IMG/VR virus record: IMGVR_UViG_3300020029_000044
Span: 1 to 6,082 of that record
Reading direction: 5' to 3' (one strand)
Source: a virus
DNA length: 6,082 nt
Positions 1-6,082 of the stretch are shown one piece after another (within the stretch, counting starts at the first letter, position 1; each line of letters opens with the position of its first letter). The notes below the pieces were generated by a model. The model searched no databases, had not been told where the DNA came from, and saw only the letters and a list, made by a program, of their open reading frames with translations. The position numbers and the translations under genes were made by a program.

Positions 1-121
1 GCGCGGTACTGTGTTAAATATGTTGTTAAACAGATTGGATTTGATTTTGAACAAATCCGAGATAAGTATGTTACTGTAGATGGAAAAATTCAATCATTGT
101 CTTCCCTTCTTGAGCACAAAC
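1..121. repeat. Terminal direct repeat, copy 1 (wrap-around of a circular genome; unit length 5961 nt)
   Basis: Read base by base: 1..121 (gcgcggtactgtgttaaatatg...cttgagcacaaac) is identical to 5962..6082. The repeat lies inside a coding region and restores one continuous ORF when the ends are joined. That is the signature of a circular contig written with an overlap. Confidence 0.97.
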
Positions 122-552
122 GCTACACTCGGAAGTTTGTCAGTGCTGGAGTTGGTGATTTTCTTGGCTATAATCCCCGTCCTTCTGCTCGTGTTACGTC
201 TTGGTCTTATATGGACCCTTCGAAAGGCATCGTATATAATTACGCGATCCCTCGATACTATGATCGGTACCTTAAACCAGAAGACGAAAGACGAAAAGCC
301 ATATTGGCTGCTGATGCGTATTCACGTTTTAGCAAGTCTTCTTTGGTGCGTCATATCGTTTCTTTGTGTGTTGCATCTTTCCTTCCCGCTTCCTCCGTAT
401 CCGGTCGAGATACATACACCTGGGAACAAAAGCAAGTGTTGAAATTTCGTGCCTCGAAGCGTAGGATGCCCGACCTGGATCCGCCAACCTTCCTGGATAG
501 GGACATCTTGCGCTTCTGGCGCGACGAATATAATCTTCAACTAACTATTTGA
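1..552 (+). CDS. VP4: Replication initiation protein VP4, C-terminal part (wraps from 5443..5961)
   Basis: Frame 1 is open from base 1 to TGA 550..552. The track shows only 97..552, starting from an internal TTG. The catalytic motif YCVKYVVK is at 7..30. The reading frame is continuous with 5443..5961 through the terminal repeat. Confidence 0.93.
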   Translation, partial: ARYCVKYVVKQIGFDFEQIRDKYVTVDGKIQSLSSLLEHKRYTRKFVSAGVGDFLGYNPRPSARVTSWSYMDPSKGIVYNYAIPRYYDRYLKPEDERRKAILAADAYSRFSKSSLVRHIVSLCVASFLPASSVSGRDTYTWEQKQVLKFRASKRRMPDLDPPTFLDRDILRFWRDEYNLQLTI

Positions 553-554
553 TT

Positions 555-2348
555 ATGGGAAAACAACCCTTCATTTCGCATGCTGTGAATGGCTACTCTC
601 GCTACGACGTTCCCGAGAGCAAGGCCTTTACGTGCACACCGGGTATTTTGTATCCAGTGCGCGTCGATTTTATTAATGCACGTGATCGTGTATCTATCGA
701 TCAGGGTATTGATGTTCGTAGTAATTCTCTTGCTGTTCCGTCATTCAACCCCTACACTGTTCGACTTCACCGTTTTTGGGTGCCGCTTCAGTTGTATCAC
801 CCCGAGTTGAGGACGAATAGTAGTAAGTTCGACATGAACAATTTAAGTTTGAATTTTGTCGCCGCCTCATCGACTGCGTCTTATCCGTATACTACTAACA
901 ATTACCCTTATTCCAACTCACTGCTTCGCTGGCTGCGTATTGTTCCAGCCACTATTCCAGTGACGACTTCTAGCAATGTTCCCATGTCGGCCAACCTTTC
1001 GACTGCCCAATTGGGACACCCCCTGGGTTGGTGTACTGCCGATTCCTATCTTGCTTATTGGGATATTGTTCGCAACTATTACAGCTACTCTCAGTGGGGT
1101 CTCTACTCTTTTGCCTGGCCTAGTAGTTGGTATTTCATTCCCAATAACACTGGCACCGCATATAACGTTTCCCAGTTCAGTGACAAGCAGTCGTTTTTCA
1201 CACAAAGGTTCGGAAATCTCGAATTCCTGGATGCTTATTTTGAGAGCCAGTTCTATCCTTCGGCCGTGCCGTCGTCGAACAATACGTATAATAGAGGAAA
1301 CCTTTTTTCTCAGATATTGCTCTCCGATCTTGGCGCTACGATTACTGCTTCCAAGGACGGCTATCCCGTTTCCACTATTTACCCTGGAAGTACCTCGCTG
1401 ACTGCTGCAGGTCCTGCGGATCAGTTTGCCGTTGAACCTGGTACTACGGACGTTACTACGCTTGGAGCATTTCTTGTATCCCATCCGATGGCTGTTGTAC
1501 CTGCGAACCCTGACCGTTACAGTCGTTTACTCCCTGTTGGTAGTTCCGAGGGCGTTTCCATGTCTGGTGTTTCAACTATTCCACAATTGGCTATTGCTTC
1601 ACGTCTCCAGGAATACAAGGATTTGCTTGGCGCTGGAGGTAGTCGATATAGCGACTGGCTTGAAACGTTCTTTGCATCAAGGATCGAACATGTTGATCGT
1701 CCCAAGCTTCTGTTTAGTGCCTCGCTGACCGTTAATGTCCAGGTTGTTATGAATCAAGCGGGTGCTAACAATTTTCAAGGTGATTCGTATTCCATGCCTC
1801 CTCTTGGTCAGCAAGGTGGTTCTATCGCATTTAACGAGCGCCTTGGTCGTCGTCAATCCTATTATTTTCGCGAGCCTGGCTACATGATTGATATGCTGAG
1901 TATTCGTCCTGTCTATTATTGGGCAGGTATCTACCCCGACTATCTCCATTATACCGGTCCTGACTACTTCAATCCGATCTACAATGATATCGGATACCAG
2001 GATGTTCCTGGATTTCAGTTTGGTTTTGGAACTACATCCACTGCGGAAACCGTGGCTTACGAGCCTTGCTTTAACGAGTTTCGATCTTCTTACGACGAGG
2101 TTCTCGGTCAGCTGTCTCGATTCCAGGGTGCTTCCAGCGCTCTACCTCTTTACTCCTATTGGGTGCAACAGCGCGTTTTGTCGGCGAGCTACAATCAGTA
2201 TTATTCCCTCCTGTTTGTGGATTTGGATCAGGTGAACTCGCCGTTCCTCTCCAGGAGAGAAGATAATTTCTTCGTTAATCTCTCGTATTCTGTTCAGAAG
2301 AAGAATTTGGTTAATAAAACATTTGCAACTCGTTTGTCCAATCGCTAA
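555..2348 (+). CDS. VP1: Major capsid protein VP1 (phiX174 F homologue, large gokushovirus/alpavirus-type form)
   Basis: 597 aa counted from ATG 555. The track start at 549 is a TTG overlapping the Rep stop, so the ATG two codons downstream is preferred. This is the largest ORF and has T-rich third codon positions. The N-terminal block FTCTPGILYPVRVDFINARDRVSI...VRLHRFWVPLQLY resembles the conserved N-terminal strands of Microviridae capsid proteins, including the FFVP.R-type block. At about 600 aa it fits capsids that carry the large surface insertion and have no separate spike (G) gene. Confidence 0.95.
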   Translation: MGKQPFISHAVNGYSRYDVPESKAFTCTPGILYPVRVDFINARDRVSIDQGIDVRSNSLAVPSFNPYTVRLHRFWVPLQLYHPELRTNSSKFDMNNLSLNFVAASSTASYPYTTNNYPYSNSLLRWLRIVPATIPVTTSSNVPMSANLSTAQLGHPLGWCTADSYLAYWDIVRNYYSYSQWGLYSFAWPSSWYFIPNNTGTAYNVSQFSDKQSFFTQRFGNLEFLDAYFESQFYPSAVPSSNNTYNRGNLFSQILLSDLGATITASKDGYPVSTIYPGSTSLTAAGPADQFAVEPGTTDVTTLGAFLVSHPMAVVPANPDRYSRLLPVGSSEGVSMSGVSTIPQLAIASRLQEYKDLLGAGGSRYSDWLETFFASRIEHVDRPKLLFSASLTVNVQVVMNQAGANNFQGDSYSMPPLGQQGGSIAFNERLGRRQSYYFREPGYMIDMLSIRPVYYWAGIYPDYLHYTGPDYFNPIYNDIGYQDVPGFQFGFGTTSTAETVAYEPCFNEFRSSYDEVLGQLSRFQGASSALPLYSYWVQQRVLSASYNQYYSLLFVDLDQVNSPFLSRREDNFFVNLSYSVQKKNLVNKTFATRLSNR

Positions 2349-2360
2349 TACATTAATCTT

Positions 2361-2657
2361 ATGGCACTTGATTGGTTACTTGAGGACGCCCCCGCTTATG
2401 TTTCTCGTGGGCAGCGCATCCTCTCCGTTCTTAATGGTTCTGGCTCTGTCGATATTCTTCCTGGTCGTCCGGACGTGACGGCGGAGCCCGCTGACTTCGA
2501 TAAGGGTGAGAAGTTTGACCCTGATATTGATTTTGATCCTAATGCTTTCTCTCGTATGGATAAGTTTGACGGCCTTGAGGTAGGTCAAGAACTTATTGAT
2601 TTAGAGTTGGATAGACCGAGGTCTGCTTCTAAATCTGCCGATTCTGAAGAAAAATAG
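2361..2657 (+). CDS. Small acidic protein, possible internal scaffolding protein (VP3-like by charge and position only)
   Basis: 98 aa from ATG 2361 to TAG 2655..2657, 12 nt after the VP1 stop. It has 23 D/E against 11 K/R, with repeated KFD/DPD motifs (EKFDPDIDFDP, DKFDG). Codon style matches the neighbouring genes. I recognise no family motif; the scaffold call is inference. Confidence 0.6.
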   Translation: MALDWLLEDAPAYVSRGQRILSVLNGSGSVDILPGRPDVTAEPADFDKGEKFDPDIDFDPNAFSRMDKFDGLEVGQELIDLELDRPRSASKSADSEEK

Positions 2658-2679
2658 TACTTTCTTTACTTGACGATAT

Positions 2680-2922
2680 ATGTTACGTGCGCGGACCCCT
2701 TCTGTGAGAGTCCGTGAATCGCTGAAGGTTATTGGTAACGACTGCAGGAGAGGCCGCGCATTTTTCTATCGTTCTTTAATTTTTAATTATGAAACTCAAA
2801 GATGTCTTGCACTCCAAAAAGTTTTGGGCGCTGGTTACGGCGATCGTGGCTGCCCTTGCGTCTTTTTTCCTCGAATCGTGTACGGCGCGACATTATGTCG
2901 TCCAGTCGGCGTCCTCCGTTAA
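2680..2922 (+). CDS. Hypothetical very basic Arg/Cys-rich 80-aa protein (possible DNA-binding/packaging protein); overlaps 2789..2986 in another frame
   Basis: ATG 2680, frame 1. It has 13 R + 2 K against 4 D/E, and 5 Cys. The codons (cgt, ggt, gct, cct, tct; G-rich first and pyrimidine-rich third positions, e.g. ggc gct ggt tac ggc gat cgt ggc tgc cct tgc gtc) resemble the preferred codons of VP1 and VP2. Two points count against it: its 5' third coincides with the 2688..2760 hairpin, and the start context (gatatATG) differs from the other genes. Confidence 0.3.
   Translation: MLRARTPSVRVRESLKVIGNDCRRGRAFFYRSLIFNYETQRCLALQKVLGAGYGDRGCPCVFFPRIVYGATLCRPVGVLR
2688..2765 (+). terminator. Long imperfect hairpin closed by a 7-bp GC helix and followed by T5 (possible terminator or ssDNA structural signal)
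   Basis: TGCGCGG (2688..2694) pairs perfectly with CCGCGCA (2754..2760). After a bulged A2695 the helix continues with C2696-G2753 and C2697-G2752. A C2698/A2751 mismatch follows, then 2699..2704 (CTTCTG) pairs with 2745..2750 (CAGGAG) with one G-T wobble. TTTTT lies at 2761..2765. The apical region of about 40 nt is only weakly paired, so this is not a textbook intrinsic terminator. Confidence 0.3.
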
Positions 2923-2986
2923 GTCCGGTGATACCACCAGAACTGTTATCACATACGAGCAGATAGGTAACTTTAAACGCCCTTAA
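2789..2986 (+). CDS. Small secreted/membrane protein with a lipoprotein-like signal peptide (65 aa)
   Basis: Sequence: MKLKDVLHSKK-FWALVTAIVAALASFFL-ESC-TARHYVV.... It has a Lys-rich n-region and a 17-residue hydrophobic h-region. A lipobox-like L-E-S-C follows, with Cys31 at 2879..2881, leaving a 35-aa mature part. The start context aattATG is the same as VP2. Its TAA (2984..2986) is separated from the VP2 ATG by only TT, the same junction seen at Rep/VP1 and at ORF65/Rep. Caveat: Ala codons are mostly GCG, which is atypical for this genome. Confidence 0.58.
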   Translation: MKLKDVLHSKKFWALVTAIVAALASFFLESCTARHYVVQSASSVKSGDTTRTVITYEQIGNFKRP

Positions 2987-2988
2987 TT

Positions 2989-4359
2989 ATGCCTGCTCCT
3001 GTTGCTGCTGCTCTTGCCGGAACTTCATTCGGCAAACAGTTATATCAAGGCGCCGCTCAATCTGGTGCATCTGGCCTTATCTCCGGTGGTATTGGTCAGA
3101 TTTTTGCCGGCATGAACGCCCGTCGCCAATGGAAATACACTCAGAAGCAAATGGCCCTTCAGCAGAAGTATGCCCTTGAGCAGATGGCCAAGCAGGCTGA
3201 GTACGAGTATGGTAATTGGCAAAAACAGTTTGATTACGAGAACGCATACAACGACCCGTCCAAGGTTTTTGATCGTTATAGCAAGGCCGGTGTTACGCCC
3301 GCTGCTGTTTTAGGCGGCTCCGGTGTTGGTGTCAATGCTACCATGTCCGGTGGTTCTGCCGGTTCTGTCGGTGCTTCCGGTCCTTCGGGTGGTTTTTCTG
3401 CCCCTGGTGTTGGTCCTCTCGATATGACCGCTGTTGGTCAGAACATGCTTACTGCTTCGGAATCTCGGCGTAATCAGGCTGCCGCTGCTCGCGATGAGGC
3501 TGAAGCTCGTTCTATTGACGATCAGAACGTTGGCAACCAACTTTATACTGCTATGGCCAGGGCCCGTGTAGGTCTTGATGAGGCGATTGCCAAACATAAC
3601 CTGGCTGCTCGCGATGTTCTTAAGGTTCAGGAGGATATAGAAAAGAATAATCGATTTATTTCCGATGCCACCCTCTTGAGTTCTGTTGATGAAAAGAAGA
3701 ATCAGGCTACCCTTGTTGCCGCAGAGGTTAAGCGTTTAGGTATTGAGAATGAAAATTTAGGCAAACTCATGTCTGCCCAGGCTTTTATGATGAATACCCA
3801 GGGCGAACTCAATCGGATTCTTGGTGAACAGGCTCGCGAGGTAATTCAATCTCTCCGCCTTGATAATCTTGATTCTGCTTATGAGCTTTCGCGTAATTGG
3901 GATGAGCGCTTTTCCGTTGAAATTCCTAATCCTCAGTATTCGGAAAATATCAGGAGTAGCAACCCTGTTGTTCGCGCCAATCCTGGCCCTCGATCCTTTA
4001 CCGTTTCAATGTCTCTTAAGGATTTCCTCGATAAGACTGTTGTGAATCAGGCGAATGCTTCTGAATTTCTCCCCGAACAGGCTCGCGTTGCCCTTCGTAA
4101 CGCAAAGCTTGATCCGTATATTGAAATTTCGAAAGCCCTTATTGGTGTTGCCGGTAGTATCACTGGTGCTGGTATTATCCGTGGTGGAATGTCGCGTGCG
4201 GCCGGCACTATTTCTGCCGGTGGTTCTTCCGCCAATTCCACGACCTCTTCCATGACCACTCGTTACAATTCCAGGGGCGATGTTGTTGGTTATGCCAAAA
4301 CTGAAATGAATCGTAGCGGTTATTCGAGTTCGTACAATAATTCTCGTCGTTCGCGTTAA
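2989..4359 (+). CDS. VP2: Minor capsid / DNA pilot protein VP2 (phiX174 H analogue)
   Basis: 456 aa. The N-terminus is Gly/Ala-rich and hydrophobic (PAPVAAALAGTSF...GLISGGIGQIFAG). A Q/K/M-rich helix follows, ending in DRYSKAGVTPAAVLGG, which resembles the AGLNP-type motif I recall from gokushovirus/alpavirus VP2 proteins. Next is a Gly/Ser-rich linker. The central region is long, charged and heptad-like (RNQAAAARDEAEAR...LDEAIAKHNLAARDVLKVQEDIEKNN...), consistent with a coiled-coil tube. The C-terminal tail is Gly-rich, then Ser/Asn/Arg-rich. It is the second-largest ORF, as expected for VP2. Confidence 0.87.
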   Translation: MPAPVAAALAGTSFGKQLYQGAAQSGASGLISGGIGQIFAGMNARRQWKYTQKQMALQQKYALEQMAKQAEYEYGNWQKQFDYENAYNDPSKVFDRYSKAGVTPAAVLGGSGVGVNATMSGGSAGSVGASGPSGGFSAPGVGPLDMTAVGQNMLTASESRRNQAAAARDEAEARSIDDQNVGNQLYTAMARARVGLDEAIAKHNLAARDVLKVQEDIEKNNRFISDATLLSSVDEKKNQATLVAAEVKRLGIENENLGKLMSAQAFMMNTQGELNRILGEQAREVIQSLRLDNLDSAYELSRNWDERFSVEIPNPQYSENIRSSNPVVRANPGPRSFTVSMSLKDFLDKTVVNQANASEFLPEQARVALRNAKLDPYIEISKALIGVAGSITGAGIIRGGMSRAAGTISAGGSSANSTTSSMTTRYNSRGDVVGYAKTEMNRSGYSSSYNNSRRSR

Positions 4360-4364
4360 TTTTT

Positions 4365-4394
4365 TTTGGAATTTCATTTTTTTTGTTATATTTG
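4365..4394 (+). promoter_or_regulatory. Candidate Bacteroidota-type promoter (TTTG ... TAnnTTTG) in the AT-rich VP2-to-ORF104 spacer
   Basis: TATATTTG at 4387..4394 matches the Bacteroides -7 consensus TAnnTTTG exactly. TTTG at 4365..4368 lies 18 nt upstream; the -33 TTTG element is usually spaced about 19-21 nt as I recall. The motif sits 28 nt upstream of ATG 4422, in a 62-nt spacer containing two T8 runs (4360..4367 and 4377..4384). Confidence 0.35.
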
Positions 4395-4421
4395 CATTGT
4401 CAAACCAATAACCTTTATATC

Positions 4422-4736
4422 ATGGAAAAGTGTAATTTTGATTCAAACTTACTGATTTTCAACGTTTTCGACTACATGTTCGTTGAGTGGCTTTCTCGTC
4501 GTGGCCTTTACTCGAAATTTGTAGCAAACCTTCCGGCTGTCAAGGACAATTCGCTGCCTCATCGCACTGCTGTTTGCGGACTTATTGCTTACGTCCTTGA
4601 TACCCCTTATCTCACCTTGTCTAACGCTGTCTTTTCGGCCTTCCCTTTTGATTCGACCCCCGAGGGCTCAACCTTCTGGCTCAACGTTTCGAGAGAGTGG
4701 GAACAATTTGTCAAATCGCTTCCTCATTTTATTTAA
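4422..4736 (+). CDS. Hypothetical protein, 104 aa (ORFan)
   Basis: ATG 4422; the track start at 4383 is a TTG inside the T-rich spacer. Stop is TAA 4734..4736. The protein is aromatic-rich, with a C-terminal block FPFDSTPEGSTFWLNVSREWEQFV. Codon style is consistent with the rest of the genome. I recognise no family. Confidence 0.55.
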   Translation: MEKCNFDSNLLIFNVFDYMFVEWLSRRGLYSKFVANLPAVKDNSLPHRTAVCGLIAYVLDTPYLTLSNAVFSAFPFDSTPEGSTFWLNVSREWEQFVKSLPHFI

Positions 4737-4750
4737 TCTGCTTTTTTGCT

Positions 4751-5074
4751 ATGACACAGGTTCATCTTGTTCTTCGACGTATCAATCCTTCGCTTAAGAT
4801 TGATCTCGCCCAGGTTGGTTATATTGAGAATGGCCAGTTTGTTAGCCTTCCTGTTTCTTCCTTGAAAGATACTGTTCTTCCGACGCTGTTGAAAGCTGAT
4901 TCAATCTCCGACAGCTGTTATGTCTTCCATTCGGATGTGTCGTCCCTTGTCGTTAGCCTGTCTTCGCTTCCAGGGTTCGCTATCGAGTATTTTGACAATA
5001 CTTTGGTTGTTATGTTTGATTTTAATATTGATCTCCATGAAAGCGCGTCGAAAGAAGAAGGGAAAGGGGACTAG
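4751..5074 (+). CDS. Hypothetical protein, 107 aa (ORFan; beta-rich with an acidic/basic C-terminal tail)
   Basis: ATG 4751; the track start at 4697 is a GTG overlapping the previous ORF. Stop is TAG 5072..5074, and the gene begins 14 nt after the upstream stop. Sequence: MTQVHLVLRRINPSLKIDLAQVGYIENGQF...HESASKEEGKGD. I recognise no family. It could be a functional analogue of VP3 or VP5, but that is speculation. Confidence 0.55.
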   Translation: MTQVHLVLRRINPSLKIDLAQVGYIENGQFVSLPVSSLKDTVLPTLLKADSISDSCYVFHSDVSSLVVSLSSLPGFAIEYFDNTLVVMFDFNIDLHESASKEEGKGD

Positions 5075-5120
5075 AATCGTCACCCGCCCCCTTGGTGGTA
5101 AGGTACTTTAACTGGTTTTC

Positions 5121-5188
5121 GAAGCAGGTGCGGACAGCCAAAGGCTGTGGCCACCCACGAAGTGGGTAAGGAACCCCGCGCCTGCTTC
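5121..5188 (+). other. 68-nt three-way-junction structured element in the main intergenic region (candidate complementary-strand origin/primosome site, or a structured RNA)
   Basis: The outer stem pairs 5121..5133 (GAAGCAGGTGCGG) with 5176..5188 (CCGCGCCTGCTTC): 12 Watson-Crick pairs plus one G-T. Arm 1 is ACAGCC-AAA-GGCTGT (5134..5148), with a 6-bp stem. Arm 2 is ACCCAC-GAA-GTGGGT (5153..5167), also 6 bp. Arm 2 can be extended by CC(5151..5152)/GG(5170..5171) and GG(5149..5150)/CC(5174..5175) across two AA bulges. About 29 of a possible 34 pairs are formed, and no plausible + strand ORF covers the element. Confidence 0.6.
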
Positions 5189-5242
5189 TCCGTTTAATCG
5201 CAGTCGGCTCGCCGAATCGATTGCCCTTATATACAAATTTTT

Positions 5243-5440
5243 ATGGATGCGTATGACACTTCGAAATATTCTCCTGTGGTTGATGGTCGCCCTTTTCGGT
5301 GGTCTGTCGGAAAATATTTGGGAAAGCGACGAGTAGTTGTTGCCTGGTTTGAGTACGAACAGGATGCAAGGGATTACGTCAAAAACTCCCGTTATTACGC
5401 CCCTGGTACTAAATACGATTATTGTCAAAGTATGTTCTAG
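5243..5440 (+). CDS. Small basic aromatic-rich protein, 65 aa, possible AP2/integrase-type DNA-binding fold
   Basis: ATG 5243; stop TAG 5438..5440 is followed by TT and then the Rep ATG (coupled arrangement). Third codon positions are T-rich. The segment RPFRWSVGKYLGKRRVVVAWFEYEQDARDYV resembles the AP2-domain pattern W.a.i...gk.r.wLG.F.T.EEAA.AY (three strands followed by a helix). That resemblance rests on my memory of the family consensus. Confidence 0.55.
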   Translation: MDAYDTSKYSPVVDGRPFRWSVGKYLGKRRVVVAWFEYEQDARDYVKNSRYYAPGTKYDYCQSMF

Positions 5441-5442
5441 TT

Positions 5443-6082
5443 ATGGCCTGCCAGTCTCCCATATGGATTCGCAACCGTCGTTATTACGACAGTAAGAACC
5501 CTTCCCGTTCTGGATCTGACGTCGCGCGTTCTGCGCTTGCGCTTCGCCCCTGGGATGTTTCCCGTCAGTGGCTCATGGTCCCTTGTGGCAGGTGTGATGA
5601 CTGTCTCCGTCGTCTTCGCAATGATTGGTTCGTTCGCCTGGAGCGCGAGTTGGCTCGTTGTAGAGCTGAATCGCAGCAGGCTATTTTTATTACCATAACT
5701 ATCAATCCCTCTCATTATAACGCTGCGCTTCTCGATCCTGCTTCATTTATTCGAAAATGGAATGAGAGAATCCGCCATCGGATTGGCCATTCCTTTAAGC
5801 ATTGTTTTTTTCAGGAATTCGGCACGCATCCGGAAATCGGATCTGAGCCTCGTCTTCATTTTCATGGATTCCTGTTTGCAACAAACGTCCTGTATAATGA
5901 AATTCGATCTGCCGTTTCTGATCTTGGGTTCGTCTGGCTTTCAAAGGCCACACTTAAGCGCGCGCGGTACTGTGTTAAATATGTTGTTAAACAGATTGGA
6001 TTTGATTTTGAACAAATCCGAGATAAGTATGTTACTGTAGATGGAAAAATTCAATCATTGTCTTCCCTTCTTGAGCACAAAC
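5443..6082 (+). CDS. VP4: Replication initiation protein (Microviridae VP4 / phiX174 gpA-like HUH rolling-circle endonuclease), N-terminal part; continues at 1..552
   Basis: ATG at 5443. Frame 1 stays open to the last base of the window. 5962 is a codon start and equals position 1, so the ORF continues in frame 1 to TGA 550..552 (1071 nt, 356 aa in total). My translation begins MACQSPIWIRNRRYY. It contains PCGRCDDC (5581..5604), FITITI (5686..5703, HUH motif I) and RLHFHGFLF (HFH at 5857..5865, HUH motif II). It also contains YCVKYVVK (5968..5991 = 7..30, two-tyrosine motif III; compare phiX174 gpA YVAKYVNK). The ORF is not in the supplied track because there is no in-window stop. Confidence 0.93.
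   Translation, partial: MACQSPIWIRNRRYYDSKNPSRSGSDVARSALALRPWDVSRQWLMVPCGRCDDCLRRLRNDWFVRLERELARCRAESQQAIFITITINPSHYNAALLDPASFIRKWNERIRHRIGHSFKHCFFQEFGTHPEIGSEPRLHFHGFLFATNVLYNEIRSAVSDLGFVWLSKATLKRARYCVKYVVKQIGFDFEQIRDKYVTVDGKIQSLSSLLEHK
5962..6082. repeat. Terminal direct repeat, copy 2 (same sequence as 1..121)
   Basis: Identical to 1..121; the offset is exactly 5961 nt. Confidence 0.97.

Follow-up and report, generated by a model that had tools for sequence, protein, structure and literature searches.

The 6082-base window analysed here, meaning the whole of IMG/VR record IMGVR_UViG_3300020029_000044 from position 1 to 6082, represents a circular microvirus genome; its ends overlap by 121 nt, leaving a genome length of 5961 nt. 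On its packaged strand, between open reading frames ORF107 and ORF65, lies a three-way junction of 68 nt (5121-5188), which we call the Y-element. We propose, with moderate confidence, that the Y-element, the hairpin that trails it and a TAWAATAC motif together constitute a complementary-strand (minus-strand) origin, akin to the interchangeable single-strand origins (sso) of rolling-circle plasmids. A sequence-only reading of this DNA had suggested a packaged-strand signal for the start of complementary-strand synthesis, and that explanation is the best supported of those considered after tests of strand, mobility, loop sequence and calibration on known origins.

Fold and covariation of the Y-element

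The module runs in the order Y-junction, T/C-rich linker, variable second hairpin and TAWAATAC motif. Its parts in the window are as follows.

5121-5188, plus (packaged) strand: Y-element, three-way junction of 68 nt (DNA and RNA folding, covariance model)
5121-5133, plus strand: 5' arm of the 13-bp outer stem, GAAGCAGGTGCGG, paired with 5176-5188
5134-5148, plus strand: hairpin 1, ACAGCC-AAA-GGCTGT (fold, covariation)
5149-5175, plus strand: hairpin 2 region, with the core ACCCAC-GAA-GTGGGT at 5153-5167, flanked by conserved GG-CC and the junction bases GTAAGGAACC
5176-5188, plus strand: 3' arm of the outer stem, CCGCGCCTGCTTC, paired with 5121-5133
5189-5196, plus strand: T/C-rich linker TCCGTTTA, which with the last TTC of the stem forms a conserved TTC-TCCATTT-like tail
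5197-5221, plus strand: downstream hairpin ATCGCAG-TCGG-CTCG-CCGA-ATCGAT, with conserved flanks and a covarying inner stem
5228-5234, plus strand: TATATAC, a form of TAWAATAC, at the end of the module

The 68-nt element folds as had been described from the sequence, with a 13-bp outer stem enclosing two hairpins with AAA and GAA triloops. Its minimum free energy as DNA is -24.2 kcal/mol (z -6.6), and none of 200 dinucleotide shuffles was as good (0/200), bearing out the earlier impression that so dense a pairing exceeds chance; as RNA, the corresponding values are -41.6 kcal/mol and z -6.9. In a sliding scan with 80-nt windows, the Y-element is the best DNA fold of the whole genome (-25 kcal/mol, z -6.0, versus -17 for the next window). 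Searching the entire window with cmscan against Rfam 15 at E<=10 gave no family at the Y-element, in which the sequence-only reading had likewise recognized none, and two chance matches elsewhere. ARAGORN called no tRNA or tmRNA.

The genome has relatives among ~60 GenBank microviruses from animal faeces and at least 16 IMG/VR contigs, at 70-78% nucleotide identity. We collected 25 distinct versions of the Y-element, which fall into three types (type 1, n=7; type 3, n=11; type 4, n=7). Covariation was counted on MAFFT alignments with a structure that we specified, and 500 column shuffles served as control.

Type 1, whole structure (7 distinct sequences: the window, L001, L002, L004, L005, L010 and the distant L003): 97.5% of cells paired; 10/29 pairs change on both sides, 5 of them in the outer stem
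Type 3 (11 distinct sequences from IMG/VR and GenBank genomes): 98.0% of cells paired; 2/27 pairs change on both sides, at low variation
Type 4 (7 distinct sequences: L011, L012, L016, L017/L018, L333, OM869610, OM869561, PQ006896/PQ007377): 99.3% of cells paired; 9/23 pairs change on both sides
Inner hairpins of types 1 and 3 together: 97.7% of cells paired; 6/16 pairs change on both sides

For the inner hairpins (types 1 and 3), for type 1 and for type 4, the observed pairing percentage and covariation score were matched by 0/500 shuffles; for type 3, 7/500 matched the pairing and 1/500 the covariation score. Shifting the 3' partners by 1-3 columns lowered pairing to 18-49%. Across the 25 sequences, compensatory changes maintain pairing in all three helices, and conservation as well as covariation is strong. 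In the outer stem of type 1, 5/13 pairs have changed on both sides while 98.9% of cells stay paired, and the outer stem of type 3 (GAACCCCAGGGG / CCCCTG.GGGTTC) is wholly different in sequence from that of type 1, with pairing kept and the inner hairpins shared. Hairpin 1 is 100% paired, with four compensatory stem variants (ACAGCC, ACGGCC, ACAGGC and ACAACC); over all types its distinct states also include CAGGC, AAGGC, CAGAC and TCAGTC. In hairpin 2, three pairs have changed on both sides. This hairpin can be extended by CC/GG and GG/CC across two AA bulges, and the sequence-only reading had it reach about 10 bp in this way; the extension is kept in types 1 and 3, but it shows no compensatory change and is not conserved in type 4.

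A common plan emerges from these comparisons: an outer stem of free sequence, hairpin 1 with its triloop on 5-6 bp, a brief junction, and hairpin 2, which starts with CCA.C and ends with G.T. The strings CCA.C and TA..(N)AC are invariant in types 1, 3 and 4, and an unpaired conserved segment, TAAG/TAAA..AC, precedes the closure of the outer stem. Conservation is higher in the inner hairpins and at the junction bases than in the outer stem. The core was also described by a covariance model (R1), which scores 78.5 bits at the window element and gives one match of 65-80 bits per type-1 or type-3 genome, with a ceiling of 16.9 bits in 678 kb of unrelated DNA. On type 4 it scores only 15-28 bits, at the expected sites, and hence the assignment of this type rests on the alignment framework and its own covariation rather than on R1 alone.

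The TTC-TCCATTT-like tail is conserved 3' of the outer stems in types 1 and 3 and in an unrelated cassette, type 2, described below; if the outer stem were a terminator, the linker would serve as its U-tract, though an imperfect one. The flanks of the downstream hairpin, TCGCAGTCG and CGAATCGA, are near-invariant, and its inner stem covaries (GGC/GCC versus GAC/GTC). This hairpin is common to type-1 and type-2 cassettes and absent from type 3, and type 4 has unrelated hairpins instead. In all cassette types the TAWAATAC motif, in its fuller form C(C/G)-T(A/T)AAATAC, comes after the final hairpin; type 4 and the distant L313 are no exceptions. Equivalents were located in L003, L011, L012, L308, L309 and L313, and the motif is present even where no gene start follows (type 4). 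It is possibly a primer start region or a -10-like box. The fuller form resembles a -10 box and, loosely, the TA(A/G)TATTAC nonanucleotide of circular Rep-encoding single-stranded (CRESS) DNA viruses.

Exchange and relocation of the cassette

Types 1 and 3 are placed after the gene for a 24-aa basic peptide, predicted to be, and probably, a J/VP8-like DNA-binding protein (hereafter the J-like gene). Overall, the Y-element occurs in three gene contexts. At most one copy was detected per genome, and its orientation relative to the genes is constant. The slot between the J-like stop codon and ORF65 differs among close relatives, holding a type-1 or type-3 Y-element, a type-2 cassette, a terminator-like hairpin, a cassette peculiar to L009, or nothing. 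The type-2 cassette (L013-L015, L019, L022, L023, L026 and L028) is unrelated to the Y-element and fills the 85 nt that precede the downstream hairpin common to both. Its outer stem measures 10 bp and includes one pair that covaries. GATRCGT occurs twice in tandem (GATRCGT-GATRCGT), and a hairpin loop bears an invariant TAGCGT, which may be the CS-6 motif of ssoA-type plasmid origins, although the literature consulted does not confirm it. In L006 and L008 the slot contains only a terminator-like hairpin and a T-run; in L009 a canonical terminator is followed by a different Y-shaped element with GCGAAGC. In L011, L012 and L016-L018 the slot is empty, the J-like stop and the ORF65 start overlapping as TAATG.

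It is in exactly those genomes without an intergenic region at the J/ORF65 junction that the type-4 module is found. Here it is an insertion of 140-190 nt in the 3' end of an ORF98-like gene, and the displaced C-terminal codons (...TCTGAAGAAAAATAG) are visible downstream. Carriers of type 4 at this position are L011, L012, L016-L018, L307-L310 and L333. The ORF98-like gene reads through the Y-element and stops at a TAA or TGA inside a conserved GGTAAATGACC; the insert is bracketed by a GGCC...GGCC stem, with the old codons lying 100-190 nt downstream.

A very distant carrier is L003 (OM869680), whose Rep is 28% identical to that of the window over 156 aa and whose VP1 is 20% identical over 103 aa. 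Its module is nevertheless of type 1, with 74% nucleotide identity to the window module and an R1 score of 71.5 bits, and it is flanked by other genes and lies 20 nt downstream of a canonical terminator (a stem with T8). A search with the L003 capsid found no relatives in IMG/VR, and the nearest GenBank capsids (31-33% identical) come without a Y-element. Conversely, L006 has a Rep 82% identical to that of the window and nearly the same J-like peptide, and it has no Y-element. In L044 the element stands directly before Rep, and ORF65 is missing. Taken together, the slot variants, type 4, L003 and L006 indicate a module whose place does not depend on particular genes and whose orientation is fixed. 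It is at most single-copy in the genomes scanned, can be exchanged, and shows no tie to Rep or capsid.

These positions bear on several other explanations. One, already offered from the sequence, is that the element is a cis-regulatory leader RNA of ORF65/Rep, for example a translational operator or a riboswitch-like structure. Its location just upstream of ORF65-Rep in the window and in types 1-3 would suit such a role. However, the elements of type 4 and L003 are not upstream of ORF65 or Rep, that of L044 directly precedes Rep with no ORF65 between, type-4 genomes fuse the J-like stop to the ORF65 start and so have zero leader, and Rfam contains no match. Given the positional data from type 4 and L003, which contradict it, a leader RNA is largely refuted, and we give it very little credence.

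Another possibility is a different role in DNA: an accessory site used by Rep as part of the plus-strand origin, a signal by which capsid or J would direct packaging, or a folded single-stranded recombination site of the type of CTX-phage attP or integron attC. A packaged-strand fold with conserved unpaired junction bases offers a protein something to recognize, insertion of the module at new sites is evident, and some microviruses are temperate, which counts in favour of an integration site. Against this, L006 lacks the element despite its similar Rep and J-like peptide while L003 carries it with a divergent Rep and capsid, the outer stem varies freely, unlike the core sites of recombinases, and no dif-like or attC-like consensus is apparent in the element on inspection. 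There is also a better candidate for the plus-strand origin, the universal ACTTGAYRATATATG adjoining a second structured element, U (see below). The independence from Rep and capsid thus argues against a plus-strand origin or packaging signal, and we rejected both; a dif, attC or XerCD site was likewise set aside, the outer stem being free to vary and a consensus not visible. We consider this group of roles unlikely as a whole. The same independence fits a site read by host factors, as a complementary-strand origin would be.

A third possibility is that the module is a selfish miniature mobile element, spreading among microviruses, perhaps through strand transfer by the HUH Rep, without benefit to the phage. 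Its patchy distribution, the clear insertion in the ORF98-like 3' end with the old C-terminal codons left behind, and its presence in a lineage as remote as L003 are all compatible with this. Yet there is at most one copy per genome in constant orientation to the genes, purifying selection on the structure is strong, with many compensatory changes, the ~6 kb genomes are tightly packed, and neither terminal repeats nor target duplications are seen. We regard purely selfish spread as improbable.

Some genomes carry non-homologous cassettes on the packaged strand that share the C-GNA-G cap discussed below. In L008 (oriented, ~4050-4130), GCGGTTC-GGA-GAACCGC directly follows U, and this cassette counts with type 2 and the L009 Y among the alternatives to the Y-element; in L009 (oriented, ~820-870), GACGC-GAA-GCGTC belongs to the different Y after the canonical terminator; in L313 (2335-2474), ACCGC-GGA-GCGGT is followed by a hairpin and then CCTTAAATACC; and L312 (2180-2300) has GTCGGGC-GGA-GCCCGAC. 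L006 contains no intergenic cassette capped in this way. Beyond the microviruses, a loose pattern (GTGGCCA N3-5 CGNAG N3-5 TAWKG) run on genome and metagenome contigs gave 0 real elements among the 240 matches listed, and blastn against 72,556 plasmids found no sequence match to the Y-element. Matches to the hairpin pattern in large contigs (L020, L027, L029, L030-L059 and most of L316-L332) have no surrounding similarity and were discarded as chance.

Acting molecule and comparison with known origins

The loop of hairpin 2 is GNA in 25/25 distinct sequences (GAA 20, GGA 2, GCA 2, GTA 1, so that all four bases occur at N), and its closing pair is C:G in 24/25. The loop of hairpin 1 is GNA in 21/25, the window itself having AAA, with a closing C:G in 25/25. 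Most relatives contain the actual sequences CCGAAGG in hairpin 1, mostly as GCC-GAA-GGC, and GCGAAGC in hairpin 2, where C-GGA-G is the other form. The loops of the relatives thus have the make-up of mini-hairpin DNA, namely a short GC stem capped by a G-N-A triloop, with C:G as the closing pair. Kimoto and Hirao (PMC13037366) report that such mini-hairpins are formed only by GNA triloops closed by C:G, that their 7-mers melt at 70-76 C, and that they bind single-stranded DNA-binding protein (SSB) poorly. Related GCGNNAGC mini-hairpins occur at the primase sites of G4 and St-1/alpha3, CCGAAGG lies within ssiA of RSF1010, and GCGGAGC lies within the phage N4 hairpin promoters, which have GGA/GAA triloops and 5-bp stems (PMC13037366).

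Strong R1 matches are found exclusively on the coding, that is, the packaged strand. Perfect C-GNA-G hairpins number 36 on the plus strand versus 5 on the minus strand over 33 genomes, nearly all of them in non-coding cassettes. Among the stem cells of the alignments there are 16 G.T versus 2 A.C cells. By these three measures the fold belongs specifically to the packaged strand. G.T makes up ~2.5% of stem cells (16/634), and none occurs in hairpin 1 or in the hairpin 2 core despite several AT-to-GC switches, which speaks for DNA, though weakly. Strand by itself cannot decide between DNA and RNA, because the mRNA is of the same sense as the packaged strand. Loops, strand bias, position and the scarcity of wobble pairs together favour DNA as the acting molecule.

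The principal RNA explanation is a 3'-end element, in which the outer stem would act within the late polycistronic mRNA as an intrinsic terminator, a stabilizer or a processing barrier limiting read-through into ORF65/Rep, with the inner hairpins as decoration. Several features point this way. The element follows the J-like stop by 9 nt, and its tail is TTC-TCCGTTT, with a higher share of T in type 3 (TTCTTCCTTTT). At the corresponding position, L006 and L008 carry a simple hairpin with TTTTTATTT, and the stem of that hairpin is a homologue of the outer stem of type 3. The RNA fold is highly stable (-41.6 kcal/mol, z -6.9), and the outer stem includes G.T(U) pairs. Other features do not accord with it. 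L003 has a T8 terminator before its Y-element, and in L009 one precedes a Y-shaped cassette that is unrelated to the Y-element; type-4 copies fall within the 3' end of a gene, with no T-tract after them and another terminator-like element ~150 nt downstream; a 42-nt branched insert would be atypical for a terminator stem; and the inner hairpins and junction bases outconserve the outer stem, their loops following a stability rule specific to DNA. A terminator scan calls none here. The tail TCCGTTTA has only 4 T in 8, and type 4 and L003 have no such tail. Since the L003 copy follows a strong terminator, the element is unneeded as a terminator, at least in that genome, and with type 4 inside a coding 3' end it fits neither terminator nor leader. 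The terminator-like alternative raised from the sequence survives for the outer stem only and leaves the inner hairpins, L003 and type 4 unexplained; as an account of the element we think it rather unlikely. The intergenic hairpins of phiX174 also end or stabilize transcripts, and a dual role as DNA origin and RNA 3' end is possible.

The folding scan was calibrated on phages whose complementary-strand origins are known, and it ranks those origins first in both G4 and phiX174. In G4, the top window (3921-4000) holds the annotated primer (3970-3997) and origin (3998); in phiX174, the top window (2301-2380) falls within the intergenic region between F and G, the location of the primosome site. 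Like the Y-element, the origin of G4 (St-1, alpha3) is an intergenic cluster of stable hairpins on the packaged strand and the top DNA fold of its genome, and its primer hairpin, CGGCGAAAGCCG at 3975 of the packaged strand, has a G(N)NA motif closed by C:G. It differs in comprising three separate hairpins in a row rather than a closed three-way junction, in having GNNA loops rather than GNA triloops, and in being read directly by DnaG primase, whereas for the Y-element a reader can only be proposed. In origins of the G4 type the primer starts at a defined trinucleotide 3' of hairpin I; in the Y-module, it is the conserved TAWAATAC motif that is found 3' of the final hairpin. The n'/PriA site of phiX174 is similarly a folded intergenic region of the plus strand and the strongest DNA fold of its genome, and the F-G region contains GCGAAGC-type sequences, as the Y-element relatives do; it is, however, a single long imperfect hairpin without homology to the Y-element. 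PriA prefers branched DNA, which a three-way junction would mimic.

Plasmid sso (ssoA, ssoU, ssoT, ssoW, ssoL) and sso1 of ICEBs1 are, like the Y-element, folded elements specific for strand and orientation, and like the Y cassettes they comprise several unrelated classes that are interchangeable among replicons with similar Rep. Their position relative to rep is flexible, their orientation is fixed and they limit host range (PMC5703833), and single-strand origins can be dispensable or redundant (PMC4595007). Unlike the Y-element, they measure ~160 nt or more, belong to plasmids or integrative and conjugative elements, and are mostly primed by RNA polymerase in Firmicutes. A scan of 5112-5242 for the sigma-70 consensus found no promoter-like site, and hence no sigma-70-type mimic of -35 and -10 boxes like that in the hairpin stems of the M13 minus origin or ssoA. 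The ssiA/ssiB sites of RSF1010 and the N4 hairpin promoters contain the same mini-hairpin sequences as the Y-element (PMC13037366), but they are read by a dedicated RepB' primase and the N4 virion RNA polymerase, respectively. A Pfam search of the window proteins recognized the capsid and Rep and nothing else, and found no enzyme like either of these. Within the Microviridae, roodoodoo- and reekeekeeviruses have conserved intergenic hairpins next to Rep with compensatory substitutions, proposed as negative-strand origins but unproven (PMC9865509); these are single hairpins in unrelated clades, whereas the Y-element has the three-way junction, the GNA signature and documented mobility. In function and behaviour, then, the Y-element appears to resemble the minus origins of G4 and phiX174 and the plasmid sso, while by sequence or model it is a member of none of these groups.

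The data demonstrate the fold, the selection on it, its strand, its modular distribution and its loop signature; action as DNA, priming, and the identity of the host factor are inferred. If the module is a complementary-strand origin, it might operate as follows. The circular plus strand would enter the cell and be coated by SSB, while the outer stem of 13 bp and both hairpins with their C-GNA-G caps would remain folded and free of SSB, presenting a fork-like, three-armed DNA. This could be recognized by a host priming enzyme, whether a PriA-type primosome, DnaG primase directly, or RNA polymerase. A primer would then be made within or beside the module, and host polymerase would convert the strand to the double-stranded replicative form.

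Several observations weigh against this interpretation. The evidence for priming is circumstantial, and the structural arguments would all fit an RNA too, the packaged strand having mRNA sense. The window element begins 9 nt past a stop codon and leads into a T/C-rich tail, some G.T pairs do occur in the outer stem, and the plain terminator-like hairpin of L006 and L008 has a stem that shares homology with the outer stem of type 3. As the Y-element is absent from the type-2 genomes and L006, it must be dispensable or replaceable. U occurs in every one of the 29 clade genomes, and the essential origin could be U rather than the Y-element. No similarity to the G4 or phiX174 origins was found, R1 scoring <=6 bits on both genomes and blastn giving only chance 9-mers. 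Finally, the sequences compared are related, and most of them derive from a small number of faecal metagenome studies. The covariation counts therefore do not represent phylogenetically independent events and suggest more independence than there is. Even so, it would be difficult to account for so many different compensatory states if pairing were not under selection.

A more specific version of the origin hypothesis, which we put forward tentatively and would not expect to hold in every part, is that the Y-module is a self-contained priming cassette, horizontally exchanged among unrelated microviruses that share hosts, in which a fork-mimicking junction and SSB-proof GNA hairpins recruit the host primosome.

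Genome context, element U and implications

All genes of the window lie on the plus strand. Those relevant here are listed below, together with U; there are, in addition, several further small ORFs.

5443 across the junction to 552, plus strand: Rep/VP4 (ORF list, Pfam)
555-2348, plus strand: major capsid protein (ORF list, Pfam)
2668-2775, plus strand: U element, a near-invariant ACTTGACGATATATGTTACG followed by a long stem, a variable interior and a T-rich tail
2989-4359, plus strand: pilot-like protein of 456 aa (ORF list)
5037-5111, plus strand: J-like gene, an unannotated ORF for the 24-aa basic peptide MKARRKKKGKGTRIVTRPLGGKVL and a stop codon, overlapping the 3' end of ORF107 in another frame and forming the left border of the non-coding region
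5243-5440, plus strand: ORF65, the first gene 3' of the module (ORF list; homologues in relatives)

The peptide encoded at 5037-5111 is conserved in 28 relatives, and the variable columns of its gene fall 12/9/21 by codon position, the third positions being the most variable. GenBank annotations of the relatives miss this ORF. The 168-nt gap that the sequence-only reading took to be entirely non-coding is accordingly shorter: the true non-coding gap is 5112-5242, 131 nt in length, with the junction element beginning 9 nt 3' of the J-like stop. Nor is it the only long non-coding region of the genome, as had been supposed, since a second one of equal length (2658-2788, 131 nt) holds another conserved structured element, U.

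In the stem of U, GTGCGCGG (2687-2694) pairs with CCGCGCAT (2754-2761). U is present in all 29 clade genomes whatever their Y type, and it is absent from the distant L003. Its left flank resembles the gene-A nick site of phiX174 (CAACTTG/ATATTAATAAC) and the CTTG/ATA site of pC194, and U may be the plus-strand origin (candidate sequence ACTTGACGATATATG). Possibly it is a terminator as well. A hammerhead-like core that we considered in U had no Rfam support.

Two further observations concern the genomes rather than the module. Upstream of Rep in L004 (IMGVR_UViG_3300020030_000088), a stretch that includes ATGGCCTGCCAGTCTCC is repeated around the Rep start in the doubled contig, most likely as the terminal overlap of a circular assembly and not as a biological duplication. 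In the window, TTTG-N18-TATATTTG at 4365-4394 (plus strand) is the sole match genome-wide to the Bacteroidota promoter consensus (TTTG / TAnnTTTG), and it sits in the AT-rich gap of 62 nt before ORF104. This single match weakly hints at a Bacteroidota host and is the sole hint to the host.

It had been stated beforehand that no complementary-strand origin is defined for gokushovirus-like phages. In the literature searched, none is defined by experiment, although, as noted above, hairpins have already been proposed for the role in other clades (PMC9865509). What is new here is the three-way-junction architecture, the GNA mini-hairpin signature, and the evidence of cassette exchange and relocation. 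Microviruses are among the most abundant DNA phages of the animal gut, and their step from single strand to duplex has been mapped only in the phiX174/G4/alpha3 group. With a covariation-backed element of 68 nt, a covariance model, and natural variants in which the element is present, absent or swapped, the question becomes testable. Should the module prove to be an exchanged priming cassette, a complementary-strand origin would for the first time be defined at family level beyond phiX174/G4, and the module, as a phage counterpart of the plasmid sso classes, would help to set the host range of microviruses. If the cassettes reflect adaptation to the priming machinery of the host, their behaviour could explain recombination hot spots in microviruses, and cassette type could help to predict the hosts of uncultured members.

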